Of a stretch of DNA of 30,859 nucleotides, positions 21,043 through 27,197 are shown piece by piece. Made by a program: the position numbers and the translations under genes. Under the pieces are notes generated by a model. The model saw only the letters and a program-made list of their open reading frames with translations, did not search any database and was not told the origin of the DNA. Within the stretch, counting starts at the first letter, position 1, and each line of letters opens with the position of its first letter. The DNA is from Acidimicrobiales bacterium (GTDB lineage Bacteria > Actinomycetota > Acidimicrobiia > Acidimicrobiales > RAAP-2), in the NCBI GenBank assembly GCA_036560685.1, contig DATBQT010000049.1:1-30859 (forward strand). The letters run 5' to 3'.

Positions 21043-22302
21043 TCACTCCTCGACCGCCGTCATGCCGAAGTCGCGCCGCCAGCCCTGCGGCAACAGGAGC
21101 TCGAGCAGGTCGTCGACGGTGACCACACCGAGGACGCGCCCATGGCTCTCCTCGAGGACCGGGACGACGGTCAGGTTGAAGTCGCTCATGGTCCGAGCGA
21201 TGCGGTGCACGTCCCAGTGGGGGTGGACGTGGGCGGGGTCCGCCCGCATGACGTCGGCCACGTGGGCGGTCGGGCGCGAGCGGACGAGGGTGACGACGGG
21301 CACGGAGCCGGCGAGGCGACCGTCGTCGTCGAGGGCGAACACGACGTTCAGCGCCTCGATCGGCGCGGTCGCGGTGCGCGTCGCGTCGAGCGCCTCCTCG
21401 ACGGTGGCGGTCGCGGCGACGCCCACGTAGTCCGGGCTCATGAGCCCGCCGGCCGACTCGGCGGGATAGCTGAGCAGATTGCGCACCTTGCGCTGCTGTG
21501 GCTCGGCCATGAGCTCGAGCAGCGGGAGTCGGCGCTCCTGGTCCACCTCGCTGATCAGGTCGGCCGCGTCGTCCGGGGCCATCCGCGAGAGCAGCCGCGC
21601 CGCGTCGTCATCGGAGCGCTGGTCGATGAACTCCAGCTGGTGCTCGGTGTCGAGCTCTTCGAACACGTCCGCCTCGAGCTCCCGGTCGAGCCCGACGGCC
21701 TCGATGATCTCCTCACCCTCCTCGTGGCTCGCCGCCTCGACGAGGTCGGCGATCTGGGCTGGGTGCAGCTTGGACAGCCGCCGGTAGGGGATGCGCAGCC
21801 TGGCCGAGGGCACGTGGCCCACGAACGGCTCGATCTGTGCGAAGTCGACGAGCGACGTCGTCGCCACCTTGCTCCCGAGGCGGCCACCGAGCAGGCGCCG
21901 CAGCAGCGGGCGGCGACCGACGTCGACGCCCACCACCTCCCAGGTGCCCTCGACGTTGGCGAGCTCGATCTCATTGGCGGTGATCAACCGCCCTCGGACG
22001 AAGTTGATGAGGTGGCGCGCCAGCAGGTCGTGCGCGAGCAGCACCTCGCCGGGGCGACGCTCGAAACGGCGCAGGTCCACTCTCTTGCCCTCGAAGCGCG
22101 CGCGGCCCCGCTCGAACGAGGCGACCTTGCGGATGGGCACGAACAGGTCGCGGCCCTCGATGCGAACGACGACGCCGACCACGGGCGGGTGCGAGCCGCC
22201 GAGCCGCGCGACGACGTCCTCGATGCGCCCGATGCGCTCGCCGTCGCGGTCGACGAGCGGTCGGTGGATGACAGAGGAGAGGTGGAGGAGCTCGAGGGGC
22301 AT
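21043..22302 (-). CDS. soluble PRC-barrel + MgtE N-terminal + tandem CBS domain protein (no membrane domain)
   Basis: 'RPLVDRDGERIGRIEDVV' (PRC), 'LSKLHPAQIADLVE' and 'MAPDDAADL' (MgtE_N repeats), 'AGGLMSPDYV' and 'MSDFNLTVVPV...GVVTVDDLLE' (CBS). No hydrophobic TM stretch. Start at ATG 22302. Confidence 0.88.
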   Translation of the reverse strand: MPLELLHLSSVIHRPLVDRDGERIGRIEDVVARLGGSHPPVVGVVVRIEGRDLFVPIRKVASFERGRARFEGKRVDLRRFERRPGEVLLAHDLLARHLINFVRGRLITANEIELANVEGTWEVVGVDVGRRPLLRRLLGGRLGSKVATTSLVDFAQIEPFVGHVPSARLRIPYRRLSKLHPAQIADLVEAASHEEGEEIIEAVGLDRELEADVFEELDTEHQLEFIDQRSDDDAARLLSRMAPDDAADLISEVDQERRLPLLELMAEPQQRKVRNLLSYPAESAGGLMSPDYVGVAATATVEEALDATRTATAPIEALNVVFALDDDGRLAGSVPVVTLVRSRPTAHVADVMRADPAHVHPHWDVHRIARTMSDFNLTVVPVLEESHGRVLGVVTVDDLLELLLPQGWRRDFGMTAVEE

Positions 22303-23905: not shown

Positions 23906-24832
23906 GTGAGCGGCCTCCGACTGATCGGCTGGGGCACGGCCCTGCCGGACCGGGTGGTCACGAACGACGAGCTGTCCGAGACGCTCGACACGTCCGACGC
24001 GTGGATCGCAGAGCGCACGGGCATCCGCCAGCGCCACGTGGGCGGGAGCGCCTCGACACTCGGGCTTGCGGCGGCCAGAACGGCGCTCGAGCGCGCCGGC
24101 GTCACCGCAGACGGCCTCGACGCGATCCTCCTCGCGACGACCACCCCGGACCGGCTCATCCCCGCGACGGCGCCCCTGATCCAAGACGCCCTCGGCGCGG
24201 AGTGCCCGGCGATGGACCTGAACGCGGCGTGCAGCGGCTTCATGTACGGCCTGTGGGTTGCCCGCGGCCTGCTCGCGACGGGCTCTCGGCGGGTGCTCCT
24301 CATCGGCGCCGAGCACCTGACCCGGTGGCTCGACTGGCAGGACCGATCGTTGGCCGTCCTCTTCGGCGACGGCGCTGGCGCGGTCGTCCTCGAGGCCACG
24401 AGCGACGCGGGCGACCTGCTGGGCTTCGACATCGGGGCAGACGGCAGCCTCGTGCACCTGATCAAGTGCGAGCATGGCGGCACGATCGAGATGGACGGCA
24501 AGGAGACCTTCCGCCGGGCAGTGCGCATCATGGTGGACTCCGCGCAGCGTGCACTGAAGGACGCGTCGATGTCGATCGAGGACGTCTCGCTCGTGGTCCC
24601 CCACCAGGCCAACCTTCGAATCATCCAGGCGGCGTGCGAGCGCCTCGGCGTGGACGAGAGTCGCGCGGTCTCGGTGATCGACCGCTACGGCAACACCTCC
24701 AGCGCGTCGATCCCGCTTGCGCTCGTCGACGCGCACGCAGAGGGGCGCATCGCGCCCGGCGACGTCCTGCTCCTCACGGGCTTCGGCGCCGGGATGACGT
24801 GGGCGAGCGCCGTGCTGCGGTGGCCCGCGTGA
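23906..24832 (+). CDS. fabH: beta-ketoacyl-ACP synthase III
   Basis: Cys-His-Asn triad motifs 'LNAACSGF', 'PHQAN' and 'GNTSSAS', plus 'LFGDGAGA' and 'GFGAGMTW'. Confidence 0.93.
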   Translation: MSGLRLIGWGTALPDRVVTNDELSETLDTSDAWIAERTGIRQRHVGGSASTLGLAAARTALERAGVTADGLDAILLATTTPDRLIPATAPLIQDALGAECPAMDLNAACSGFMYGLWVARGLLATGSRRVLLIGAEHLTRWLDWQDRSLAVLFGDGAGAVVLEATSDAGDLLGFDIGADGSLVHLIKCEHGGTIEMDGKETFRRAVRIMVDSAQRALKDASMSIEDVSLVVPHQANLRIIQAACERLGVDESRAVSVIDRYGNTSSASIPLALVDAHAEGRIAPGDVLLLTGFGAGMTWASAVLRWPA

Positions 24833-25683
24833 CCGCCTTCGTCATCCTCGCCGCAGGCCGCGCACGTCGCTACGGCGGCGTCAAGCCGCTCGCGCCGATC
24901 GGGCCGAACGACGAGGCCGTCATCGACCTGCTCGCGGGCGACGCCGTGCGCGCAGGATTCGACCGCCTGGTGCTCGTCATCAACCCCGACACCGGGAACC
25001 TGATCCGCAACCACGTGACGAGCGCGTGGCCCTCGAGCGTCGAGGTCTCCTATGCGGTGCAGCGCCGCCCGATCGGCACCGTCGACGCGGTCCTCGCCGC
25101 GCGCGACGACGCGGACGACGAGCACGCCTTCGCGGTGGCCAACGCGGACGACCTCTACGGCGTCGACGCGCTCTCGGTGCTCGCGACGCACCTGCGAGCG
25201 CACGGCACCAACAGCCTGGTGGGCTTCCGCCTCGACCGCGCGCTCGTCGGCGACCTGGGGGTCACCCGGGGGGTGTGCGAGGTGGCAGACGGCCGCCTCG
25301 TGTCGATCGTTGAGCGCCGCGACGTGCGCCAGGACGGCGGCGCCTTCCTGTCCGACGACGGCCTCGAGCCCAAGGAGCTGGACGCGTCGGCGCTCGTCTC
25401 GATGAACCTCTGGGGGTTCGATCCGCGCATGTGGCAGGTCTTCGCCGACGCGATGGACATGTCGTCCGACGCCCACGAGGACAATGAGGTCCTGCTCCCC
25501 GAGCTCGTGAGCCGCGTGGTGCAGGGCCTCAGGGGCGATGAGGCGCTGCGCTCGGTCAACGTGCTGGCCACGACGAGCCGGTGCATCGGGGTCACGCACC
25601 CCGACGACCTCGCCCTCGTCAAGGCCGACATCGCCGCGCAGATCGCCGCCGGCGAGCGACCGCTCGAGGCGTTCCCGGCCTGA
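24829..25683 (+). CDS. sugar-phosphate nucleotidyltransferase (NTP_transferase family)
   Basis: Motifs 'ILAAG...RYGGVK', 'PIGT.DAV', 'NADDLYG', 'TRGVC', 'SMNLWGF', 'GVTHPDD'. GTGA overlap with fabH. Confidence 0.85.
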   Translation: MTAFVILAAGRARRYGGVKPLAPIGPNDEAVIDLLAGDAVRAGFDRLVLVINPDTGNLIRNHVTSAWPSSVEVSYAVQRRPIGTVDAVLAARDDADDEHAFAVANADDLYGVDALSVLATHLRAHGTNSLVGFRLDRALVGDLGVTRGVCEVADGRLVSIVERRDVRQDGGAFLSDDGLEPKELDASALVSMNLWGFDPRMWQVFADAMDMSSDAHEDNEVLLPELVSRVVQGLRGDEALRSVNVLATTSRCIGVTHPDDLALVKADIAAQIAAGERPLEAFPA

Positions 25684-25716
25684 GCCCCGCGGGCCGCACT
25701 TGGCCCGGACATGACG

Positions 25717-26100
25717 AAACCCCGAGTGACCGGTCAGCCGCAGCCTTCCAGCCCCTCGGGGCTCGTCTGGTGACCTCCGACGAGCCAGGTCGTGTCGGAC
25801 AACCTGGTCACCGCACCGACCCCGGTCCCTTTCGGTCCCAGACCCGGTGGCGGGCCACCACCGTGTGCACCCCTTGCCTCTTGCGCCCGGTCCCTTTCGG
25901 TCCCGAGCGCTGGTGCCGCTTCGTCCCTCCTTTCGGAGGTCCCCTGCGGTCCCCGTCTCCGGGGCCCCTTGCGGGTCCCCTTCGTCGCTTCGGCGGGTGG
26001 TGCGCACCCGGCGTTGAAGGCACTCTGCCGGAGCCGCCCACGGCATGCAACCCGAAACGGCGATATCCCCGGGATATCCACGACTTGCTTGTTGCTGTCC
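25717..26100 (-). ncRNA. candidate large structured non-coding RNA, family unassigned; ends approximate
   Basis: Largest gap in the window. At least five GNRA-capped hairpins, with loops reading GNRA only on the minus strand. Duplicated 19-nt module. A closing stem AGCCCCGAG/CUCGGGGUU is followed by U residues. No credible ORF. Confidence 0.6.
25821..25904. repeat. exact 19-nt direct repeat CCCGGTCCCTTTCGGTCCC (two copies)
   Basis: Copies at 25821-25839 and 25886-25904, read directly. Confidence 0.9.
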
Positions 26101-26147
26101 ACCGACGCGGCGAGGTAACCCACCGGTAGCGACGACGTTCTCCAGAG

Positions 26148-27125
26148 CTAATCCACAGCGGCGTCGGCAACTGCCGGGAGCGCGCGCAACGTGCGGCGTG
26201 GGAGCAGCGCCGCGAGCGCGCCGCCGACCCGCGCCGCGCCCGCGGCGACGAGGTTCCGAAGCCCCATCGCGCGCACGCGCAGCGAGCCCGCGCCCCTTCG
26301 CTGCGTGAACAGCTCGAGGTGGTAGGCCTCGATGCCGTGCGCGAGGCGTCGGGCCTCTCGGGCACTCGGCGCGGCGCGCAGCATCACCCACAGGGCGTGG
26401 CCGCGGCCCCAGCGGCGCCTCGTCGTCGCGGCGCTCCGCTGTGCGTCGTGGCGGCGGTAGTCCAAGACGACCCGATCGACGGTGACCACCGAGCCGGCCG
26501 CCGCGAGGCGGACGAGGAACTCGAGGTCCTCGCTCCTGCGCGCGGCGGGGTCGAAGCCGCCCAGCGCCCTCGCACAGGCCGTGTCGACGAGCCACGCGCC
26601 CGGTGGCGGGGACACGAGGCGAGTGACGAGCGCCTCGGGCACGAGACCGTCTGGGCTCTCGATCACCCTGCCGTGGCGCCGGACGACGGCACGAAGCTGG
26701 TCGTCGGCCCAGCGGCCCACGTCGACGCTGGCCCCGGCGTCGTCGACCGCACGAAACCGGCCCAGCGCGACGACCGCCCCGCGGTGGGCGGCGAGCGCCT
26801 CGTCCAGCACGCCCAAGGCGTCGTCCGCGAGCACGTCGTCGGCGTCGAGGAAGCAGACCCGGGTGCCCTTCGCCCGGGAGAGCCCGTCGTTGCGCGCGGC
26901 GGCCGGACCGCCCCGGACCGGCCGCGAGACCAGCTCGACACGGGGGTCCTCGGCGCCCAGCGCCGCGGCCACCGCGGCAGTGTCGTCGTCGCTCGCGTCG
27001 TCGACGACGACGCACTGGCCGACCGCGACCGACGCCAGTGCGGAGCGGACCGCGCCACCGAGCGTCGCCGAGGCGTTCCTCGCCGCCACGACGACGGTGA
27101 CCCCGCCGCCGGCATGCCCCCTCAT
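26148..27125 (-). CDS. glycosyltransferase family 2
   Basis: Motifs 'VTVVVAARN', 'VVVDDASDD', 'GPAAARN.G', DxD 'FLDADD', 'SEDLEF'. Confidence 0.9.
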   Translation of the reverse strand: MRGHAGGGVTVVVAARNASATLGGAVRSALASVAVGQCVVVDDASDDDTAAVAAALGAEDPRVELVSRPVRGGPAAARNDGLSRAKGTRVCFLDADDVLADDALGVLDEALAAHRGAVVALGRFRAVDDAGASVDVGRWADDQLRAVVRRHGRVIESPDGLVPEALVTRLVSPPPGAWLVDTACARALGGFDPAARRSEDLEFLVRLAAAGSVVTVDRVVLDYRRHDAQRSAATTRRRWGRGHALWVMLRAAPSAREARRLAHGIEAYHLELFTQRRGAGSLRVRAMGLRNLVAAGAARVGGALAALLPRRTLRALPAVADAAVD

Positions 27126-27197
27126 CGTCGCGCCCGCATGGCTCGATCATTGCCCACGCACGACGGCGCACCGCCGTGTGTGCCTACGATCCGCGTC

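Follow-up and report, generated by a model that had tools for sequence, protein, structure and literature searches.

What is encoded by the gap that separates two convergent genes in contig DATBQT010000049.1 of an Acidimicrobiales bacterium (assembly GCA_036560685.1)? The DNA analysed, 30,859 nucleotides (nt) long and called the window throughout, carries on its minus strand a gene for a family-2 glycosyltransferase (GT2), whose stop codon lies at 26148, and on its plus strand an NTP_transferase-domain gene ending at 25683, and these two gene ends bear out a gap of 464 bp. An earlier note, made from the sequence alone, had placed a structured RNA candidate of about 380 nt, rich in GNRA tetraloops and read from the minus strand, at 25717-26100, and had supposed that it might be a stand-alone transcript. 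The analysis presented here leaves us in little doubt that the locus is a gene in its own right, whose product is a structured, stable, abundant and strand-specific RNA of approximately 300 nt, with a sigma-A-type promoter of its own and, at the 3' end, a hairpin that hardly varies. The gene belongs to an uncatalogued, usually single-copy family distributed throughout Acidimicrobiia, and is neither a leader, nor a 3' untranslated region (UTR), nor a coding sequence. The supposition of a stand-alone transcribed RNA was borne out by a conserved promoter of its own, by metatranscriptome contigs confined to the RNA, by compensatory base changes and by the lack of an Rfam match.

Promoter and transcription of the RNA gene

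The promoter was recognized by alignment with the family consensus TTGACC-N17-CAnnnT, which was found 174-318 nt upstream of an invariant loop (the CCGAC loop described below) in most of 135 loci. The genus of the window has TTGCAT as the −35 hexamer where the family has TTGACC, and the promoter is invariant or nearly so in six sister species. The position of the −10 hexamer at 26027-26022 sets the predicted start near 26015. The length of about 380 nt was thus an overestimate: the RNA takes up only ~300 nt, and ~85 nt of the span originally flagged (26016-26100) are promoter and upstream DNA. One of the four subtypes of the family (A to D) has an extended −10 element (tcTGG-CACAGT) in place of the usual form of the promoter; this is the short subtype C, with RNAs of ~255 nt.

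Contigs from four metatranscriptomes were compared with positions 25400-26500, and those with at least 85 % identity were taken into account. They covered positions 25749-26009 and nothing else of note, with summed word depths that peaked at 406, 217 and 2852 in runs X14, X22 and X23, respectively. The depth was zero over 26029-26139; it was also zero over the flanking genes in three runs, and only a few short pieces of low depth were seen there in X23. The silent flanks served as the control for DNA contamination. Contigs at least 99 % identical to the window numbered thirteen in X23 and one in X14. A discrete transcript was therefore seen at 25749-26009, its minus-strand origin being deduced from promoter and fold. 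At 26002, 26003 and 26009 the contigs run into Illumina adapter sequence, 6-13 nt inside the predicted start, and this offset corresponds either to the usual loss at RNA 5' ends or to processing. Words of 31 nt from the RNA were present in at least 23 metatranscriptome runs from many studies of soil, rhizosphere, wetland and freshwater sediment, some of these runs holding only 8-35 million letters.

Fold of the RNA and selection on its structure

The minimum free energy predicted for the minus strand between 25700 and 26147 was −240.9 kcal/mol, against −211.6 +/- 6.0 kcal/mol for dinucleotide shuffles (z −4.9; none of the 100 shuffles was as good), whereas the fold of the plus strand gave a z of −0.14. 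When a strict GNRA hairpin was defined by three closing pairs and a GNRA loop, four were counted on the sense strand of the RNA and none on the antisense strand, so the one-sidedness of these loops described in the earlier note is real. The same asymmetry holds for 118 members of the family, with subtype means of 1.6-5.3 GNRA hairpins on the RNA strand versus 0.1-0.3 on the complement. All of the hairpins picked out in the earlier note were recovered in place, including the CCAGGUUGU/ACGACCUGG hairpin, although two needed qualification. The hairpin with the GAGA loop is present and its 3-bp stem is kept in the sister species, but the loop is no longer of the GNRA type there (GAG, GAGU or GAGG). 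Similarly, the final stem exists, but the U residues said to follow it amount merely to UUU-C-GUC; this 3' hairpin probably doubles as the terminator.

The sequences of the genus, seven in number, differ on both sides of the helix in 12 of the 135 predicted pairs, and the loops remain GNRA. In the long hairpin, for example, CCUCC/GGAGG is replaced by UCCUC/GAGGA or CUUCC/GGAAG. In module 1 of the two similar modules listed in Table 1 the tandem GA and the GNRA loop are maintained in the sister species; the GGTCCC hexamers visible on the plus strand are the complement of the GGGACC arms of the modules. At the 5' hairpin two stem positions show compensatory changes in related lineages: GGGUU/AACCC in L017, GGGUC/GACCC in L047 and GAGUU/AACUC in L053. 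For the same segment RNAalifold, applied to the near-invariant genus set, proposed a long-range helix between 26012-25992 and 25878-25860. It was distrusted, since the related lineages support the local hairpin, and this alternative is considered the less likely one.

Homologues with compensatory changes were found within the genus and across the subtypes alike. Among 30 distinct sequences of subtype C (~255 nt) 28 of the 74 predicted pairs were compensatory. A long-range helix that joins the 5' end of this subtype to the segment before the 3' domain contains pairs which occur as UA in 22 sequences and CG in 7, as UA in 19 and CG in 9, and as CG in 14 and UA in 13. The alignments of the four subtypes were compared with 20 column shuffles each, uncorrected for phylogeny, so that the values are not to be read as P-values: the consensus energies were −253 vs −180 (A), −177 vs −98 (B), −179 vs −106 (C) and −264 vs −197 (D), and the compensatory pairs 28 vs a shuffled mean of 14 (A), 31 vs 15 (B), 31 vs 7 (C) and 12 vs 3 (D). 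The reverse complement gave a weaker consensus energy in all four subtypes.

The lengths of the RNAs in the family range from ~250 to 410 nt, and the number of GNRA hairpins per RNA from 0 to 7, with subtype means of 4.3, 1.7, 1.6 and 5.3. While the number of modules varies between the subtypes, the promoter is kept in all of them, and so are the CCGAC and 3' hairpins. Consensus folds computed with RNAalifold for the four subtypes consist of a multi-branched 5' domain and two 3' hairpins. In subtype C the lower stem of the CCGAC hairpin covaries strongly (CG in 23 and UA in 7 sequences; GU/UA/GC/CG) and its apex is constant. The 3' hairpin does not vary in the genus of the window, and its inner stem covaries at the level of the family (AU in 23 and GC in 4 sequences; CG in 12, UG in 9 and UA in 9). 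The motif AGUUCGG stands at the extreme 5' end of the RNA in subtypes A and B and is found in subtype C in the loop of an internal hairpin, GCGGA-GUUCGG-UCCGC (alignment columns 111-118), which may reflect a domain order that depends on the subtype or a role in a tertiary contact.

Distribution of the RNA in Acidimicrobiia

Each of the six other species of the genus carries one full-length homologue with 79-85 % identity. In eight other genera of the family the BLAST match is limited to the 100 nt at the 3' end, and this part of the RNA was used for wider searches. The first was a pattern scan, which the window matches exactly at 25800-25721 with the UGU-CCGAC-ACG hairpin followed by the CCCCGAG...ACUCGGGG hairpin. 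The exact 3' motif was present in at least 120 genomes (one genome per GTDB species), and among the matches listed all were metagenome-assembled genomes of Acidimicrobiales / Acidimicrobiaceae from soil, peat and freshwater. As the scan demanded an exact GTCCGACACG, the invariance of the apex in that set is partly due to selection.

The second search used R1, a covariance model of the 3' core with 118 positions and 30 pairs, which has the 3' hairpin as its centre. The RNA of the window scored 86.1 bits against it (E 5e-16). With strict filtering, which makes the counts lower bounds, R1 gave one match in each of 46 out of 151 sampled genomes of the order, belonging to many families, and further matches in 16 genomes from other orders of Acidimicrobiia; ~137 genomes from the rest of the phylum yielded only two weak matches. 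The 46 genomes include the unpublished G162, on which no claim rests. Variants of the CCGAC apex, such as GUCCGACC, were met in distant orders with the model.

Duplicated RNA genes ~490 bp apart, in tandem or divergent, were observed in three genomes: in G308 (contig C5, locus L158) at 1011-1114 and 1501-1604, in G290 (contig C12) at 30682-31220 and in G196 (contig C1) at 21638-22235. The two copies in G308 have almost identical upstream regions and bodies, and the second copy has the apical loop CCCUGUG instead of UCCGACA.

Comparison with catalogued RNA families

The whole window was searched against Rfam 15 at the gathering thresholds and the region of the RNA at E values up to 10, and no family was matched; the only entry returned was a junk match to mir-762 (E 8). 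The view that the RNA belongs to none of the known families thus holds for Rfam 15. Identity with RNase P RNA (RF00010), tmRNA (RF00023) or the signal recognition particle (SRP) RNA (RF00169) was rejected, as these had no match in the window and lay at other loci where they were detected. In five related genomes SRP RNA and tmRNA were detected in all five, and RNase P RNA and raiA RNA in three each, always at loci other than that of the new RNA. The 6S RNA (RF00013) was found neither in the window nor in any of these five genomes. Full-text searching of the literature found no description of the new RNA.

The raiA motif RNA is known to occur in Acidimicrobiia (PMC10861870). It resembles the new RNA in being a single-copy, trans-acting and highly structured RNA of this class whose biochemical function is unassigned. 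It differs in being a separate gene with its own promoter, which has no box array of the kind described below, and the two RNAs match neither in sequence nor in structure. Identity with raiA (RF03072) was rejected: the window gave no match, and matches of 145-154 bits were obtained at other loci in G006, G022 and G016. These raiA loci (L168-L170, at G006:C1:352067, G022:C5:3400016 and G016:C2:1151724) come from the sister genus and the family. The first ~20 nt of raiA RNA are identical in three genera, and the region upstream of it is devoid of the box array.

A DnaA-box-like array upstream of the promoter

Six 9-mers resembling DnaA boxes, all in the same orientation, precede the promoter (Table 1). 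Their start-to-start spacing is 11, 22, 21, 21 and 11 bp, and four of the six have at most two mismatches from TGTGGAYAA. The bin 26000-26199 is the densest in the window for such 9-mers, with four found, all on one strand, versus ~0.2 expected.

The array is a property of the family. The boxes have the consensus yTG(G/T)GGAnRA and lie upstream of the −35 hexamer in the same orientation, at fixed offsets of about −85, −75, −55 and −35 from it; in 127 upstream regions 256 copies of TGGGGA were counted on the RNA strand, against 5 on the opposite one. A conserved GGATTTCGCG is located ~12 nt before the −35 hexamer. The segment 26157-26022 of the window fits this design, comprising the boxes, GGAT(A/T)TC ~12 nt before the −35 hexamer, the −35 hexamer itself, N17 and CAnnnT. 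Distant lineages have canonical TGTGGACAA boxes or, in the opposite orientation, TTGTCCACA boxes.

DnaA would be the likeliest protein to bind here: its consensus box is matched by those of the array, and the same variants adjoin dnaA in the relatives. In the dnaA regions of ten relatives TGTGGA and TGGGGA variants are mixed as they are in the array, and in several relatives the boxes that flank dnaA on its dnaN side follow one another at intervals of ~22 bp. This mixture suggests that the DnaA of the clade may tolerate C at the seventh position of the box. Judged by such likeness of sequences, the chances that DnaA binds the array appear to be evenly balanced. Five dnaA loci (L181-L185, in G015, G016, G010, G022 and G009) show clusters of TGTGGA/TCCACA with TGGGGA/TCCCCA variants on both flanks of the gene, at ~1040-1140 and 2520-2750.

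In the genomes examined GGATTTC-N11-TTGAC occurs once per genome, at the locus of the RNA. A wider regulon was looked for with GGATTTC-N10-16-TTGAC and rejected: there was one true site per genome, and the other six matches were in coding sequence and had no box arrays. The idea that the boxes are a generic element of stable-RNA promoters was likewise dropped, given that the raiA promoters of the relatives lack them. Nor is the locus oriC, since in four closed genomes dnaA is 33-47 % of the chromosome away.

Possible function of the RNA

We propose a modular RNA that would act in trans by binding a protein, which it would sequester or scaffold, and not by base pairing. Its body would be a string of near-identical short hairpins, capped by GNRA loops, flanked by tandem G.A pairs, joined by purine-rich linkers and variable in number between lineages, while the 5' hairpin, the CCGAC-loop hairpin and the 3' hairpin would be the fixed elements. 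The synthesis of the RNA would be set by a protein oligomerising on the phased 9-mers just upstream of the −35 hexamer, most likely DnaA, and in that case the amount of the RNA would track the state of the replication initiator. A modular protein-binding RNA is preferred because a variable number of modules is enclosed by fixed ends, because sibling copies exist and because the gene has a dedicated upstream array. Taken as a whole, with synthesis probably set by DnaA, the mechanism is put forward tentatively, its chances falling somewhat short of even.

Among known systems, the Csr/Rsm RNAs (CsrB/C and RsmX/Y/Z) have a similar design. The likeness lies in near-identical repeated hairpin modules whose number varies with the lineage (0-7 here), in sibling gene copies in some genomes and in an upstream array specific to the small RNA (sRNA) promoter, and it is a likeness of design only. 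The Csr/Rsm loops are GGA whereas those of the new RNA are GNRA, and the conserved 5' and 3' domains of the new RNA have no Csr/Rsm counterpart. CsrA and Hfq were considered as partners and rejected, CsrA being present in only two of five carrier genomes and Hfq in none. In one genome (G022:C5:1683569-1684060) three matches to the CsrA domain lie within a single open frame of 252 codons. Such a triple-repeat protein would be unusual, since members of the CsrA family are normally small homodimers.

A more far-reaching version would have the RNA report the ATP-DnaA or initiation state through an array of low-affinity boxes similar to oriC, and sequester or scaffold a protein, possibly RNA polymerase (RNAP), so as to couple replication to global expression. 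This version is doubtful, and we know of no DnaA-driven sRNA of such a type.

Several points weigh against the mechanism proposed or against details of the gene on which it builds. No partner was found, as the distribution of CsrA and Hfq over the five carriers illustrates. GNRA loops are not a known protein-binding motif and could equally form a compact tertiary fold or RNA-RNA contacts. The argument for binding of DnaA comes from the resemblance of the boxes, and TGGGGA, the commonest box in most lineages, differs from the canonical TGTGGA. The contigs are strandless, so it is the promoter, the G.U pairs and a fold specific to one strand that indicate the strand of the RNA. The helix predicted to close the GNRA domain and the three-way junction at ~25859-25769 are ambiguous in the genus of the window. 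Finally, the last 35-55 nt, which hold the 3' hairpin, have no contig coverage and the 3' end is unmapped; the 3' end and its hairpin may be under-represented in the libraries, or the mature RNA may be trimmed. The uncovered 3' arm of the terminal hairpin (25713-25749) belongs to the most conserved part of the family.

The main rival explanation is an RNAP-binding RNA, a functional counterpart of 6S or Ms1 that stores or inhibits the core enzyme or the holoenzyme. Since 6S was undetected in all five related genomes and other housekeeping RNAs were detected there, this role would be unfilled in the carriers. The new RNA resembles 6S as an abundant, usually single-copy sRNA of the housekeeping type, and no other candidate for the role was detectable; it is ~100 nt longer than 6S, matches no 6S model and does not adopt the rod-and-bubble fold. 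Ms1 (Ms1 of M. smegmatis, MTS2823 of M. tuberculosis and scr3559 of S. coelicolor) binds the RNAP core, has a sigma-A-like promoter (PMC4191392) and has been reported only in orders of Actinomycetia, not in Acidimicrobiia (PMC9130861). The two RNAs share an origin in Actinomycetota, a size of ~300 nt, very high abundance, transcription from a sigma-A-like promoter as a single-gene unit that has a terminator hairpin, poor sequence conservation beyond close relatives, and carriers in which 6S is not recognisable.

Ms1 is described as a long hairpin with a central bubble, encoded near the origin, transcribed toward it and located beside a gene for a HAD-IB hydrolase (PMC4191392, PMC9130861); its synteny comprises this HAD-IB hydrolase / phosphoserine phosphatase gene and an oxidoreductase gene (PMC9130861). 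In each of these respects the new RNA is different. Its consensus folds in the four subtypes show a multi-domain string of hairpins and not the rod with the central bubble needed for the binding of Ms1 and 6S. Its neighbours are the GT2 and NTP_transferase genes or, elsewhere, genes of the GH43, GatB, SDR, DUF480 or SRAP type, with neither the hydrolase nor the oxidoreductase among them. It also lies 33-47 % of the chromosome from dnaA, taken as a proxy for the origin, in the four closed genomes. The new RNA gave no Rfam 15 match at E values up to 10, the presence of an Ms1 model in that library being unconfirmed, and is set apart from Ms1 by these described features. An RNAP-binding role is accordingly possible but improbable.

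A second alternative is a trans-acting sRNA that works by base pairing, with the CCGAC loop and its UGU/ACG closing pairs, or some other invariant single strand, as the seed. In its favour, an apical loop constant in more than 100 species sits on a covarying stem, and the absence of Hfq from the five carriers is no obstacle, for actinobacterial sRNAs act without Hfq. Part of this constancy stems, however, from the search pattern; the RNA is also very long, with nearly all of it paired, and its abundance would be stoichiometrically unusual for such an action. A search of five dnaA regions for complementary sites gave none that was consistent, and seeds of 5-7 nt are too short for a meaningful prediction over whole genomes. 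Seed pairing is unlikely to be the function.

An architectural role has equally poor prospects. Other orphan bacterial RNAs have been reported to form compact or multimeric particles, and here the GNRA loops and tandem-GA helices could make the tertiary contacts of a self-assembling RNA. The dense GNRA loops on one strand only and the tandem sheared G.A motifs conserved beside them speak for this. A variation from 0 to 7 modules between lineages argues against a single precise three-dimensional architecture, and a tetraloop receptor of the 11-nt type is not evident in the sequence.

The DNA itself might be the functional element, namely a cluster that titrates or reactivates DnaA in the manner of datA or DARS, with the transcript as a by-product or as a modulator of its occupancy. 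The phased row of weak DnaA-box-like sites in one orientation is what such an element would contain, and the low-affinity arrays of oriC are arranged similarly. The selection on RNA structure (compensatory changes, strand-specific G.U pairs and conserved loops) and the accumulation of the RNA to high levels make this explanation very unlikely.

The possibility of a cis element (a 3' UTR of the GT2 gene, a leader or a riboswitch) or a small protein gene, to which its place immediately after the GT2 stop codon, on the strand of that gene, and one frame free of stops in all seven genus sequences might point, is practically negligible, because the RNA has its own promoter, coverage is lacking between the GT2 stop codon and 26029, the upstream gene varies with the lineage and the downstream gene is convergent, and because all 27 internal gaps among the seven close relatives are of a single base, which excludes a conserved reading frame, and the candidate open reading frames have no Pfam match.

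Significance of the RNA for Acidimicrobiia

Acidimicrobiia are among the commoner Actinomycetota of soils, peat, freshwater and seawater. Because most of the members are uncultured, the RNA biology of the class is, to our knowledge, almost unknown. An RNA that spans the class and assembles even from metatranscriptome runs of ~10 million letters probably has a central place in the cell, whether in housekeeping or in regulation, the more so to be noted as it has no Rfam homologue and is found in genomes with no detectable 6S. The helically phased row of DnaA-box-like sites, unique to the RNA gene in each genome examined, would provide a testable link between the initiator and an abundant RNA. 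If the more far-reaching version described above is true, an RNA driven by DnaA would tie global gene expression in Acidimicrobiia to the replication of the chromosome.

Features of the locus and neighbouring genes

The positions of the features described above are collected in Table 1.

Table 1. Positions of the RNA gene, its parts, the upstream array and the adjacent genes in the window
Feature	Position	Strand	Evidence
sRNA gene, ~300 nt	~26015 to 25713	-	promoter, metatranscriptome contigs, fold
Promoter: −35 TTGCAT (26050-26045), 17-nt spacer, −10 CAGAGT (26027-26022)	26022..26050	-	alignment with family consensus
Six same-orientation DnaA-box-like 9-mers: 26157-26149 (TGTGGATTA, overlapping the GT2 stop codon), 26146-26138, 26124-26116, 26103-26095, 26082-26074, 26071-26063	26063..26157	-	read from the sequence
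5' hairpin CGGGUG-CGCAC-CACCCG (including GGGUG/CACCC, 26009-25995)	25994..26010	-	compensatory changes in related lineages
GNRA hairpin CCC-GCAA-GGG	25966..25975	-	one compensatory pair in the genus; loop stays GAAA, GCAA or GAGA
Hairpin CCCCG-GAGA-CGGGG	25964-25951	-	sequence
Long hairpin, cap CCUCC-GAAA-GGAGG (25939-25926)	25912..25953	-	five compensatory pairs in seven genus sequences
Module 1: stem, tandem G.A/A.G, CC-GAAA-GG, stem	25883..25910	-	one compensatory and two one-sided changes
Module 2: design of module 1, GAAA at 25833-25830 (tandem-GA core 25845-25818)	25815..25848	-	two compensatory pairs in the genus
Hairpin with apex UGU-CCGAC-ACG, loop CCGAC at 25798-25794	25778..25813	-	three compensatory pairs in the genus
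3' hairpin: outer stem CCCCGAG/CUCGGGG, G.A mismatch, inner stem, UNCG-type cap	25713..25767	-	no variation in the genus
GT2 gene, upstream neighbour, outside the RNA	26148..27125	-	Pfam PF00535, E 6e-23
NTP_transferase-domain gene, convergent downstream neighbour	24001..25683	+	Pfam PF00483 / PF12804

The region is single-copy in the assembly of the window itself (1.38 Mb, 69 % complete), and a repeat or mobile element was therefore rejected. The real start of the NTP_transferase-domain gene is probably later than 24001. A homologue of this gene lies downstream of the RNA in 76 of the 135 loci, and the upstream neighbour varies with the lineage (GH43, GatB, SDR or DUF480). A functional tie between the RNA and the NTP_transferase gene was rejected on account of intervening genes in several lineages and of a different neighbour in subtype C, and the adjacency is read as inherited gene order. 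In subtype C (L127, L056 and 27 further loci) the convergent downstream neighbour encodes an SOS-response-associated peptidase (SRAP, PF02586), whose stop codon is at a median of ~31 nt from the end of the 3' motif of the RNA.

A stop-free frame of 828 codons on the minus strand (24685-27171) extends from the GT2 gene through the entire RNA gene into the end of the NTP_transferase gene. This frame is spurious, as expected at 73 % G+C, and could mislead gene callers.

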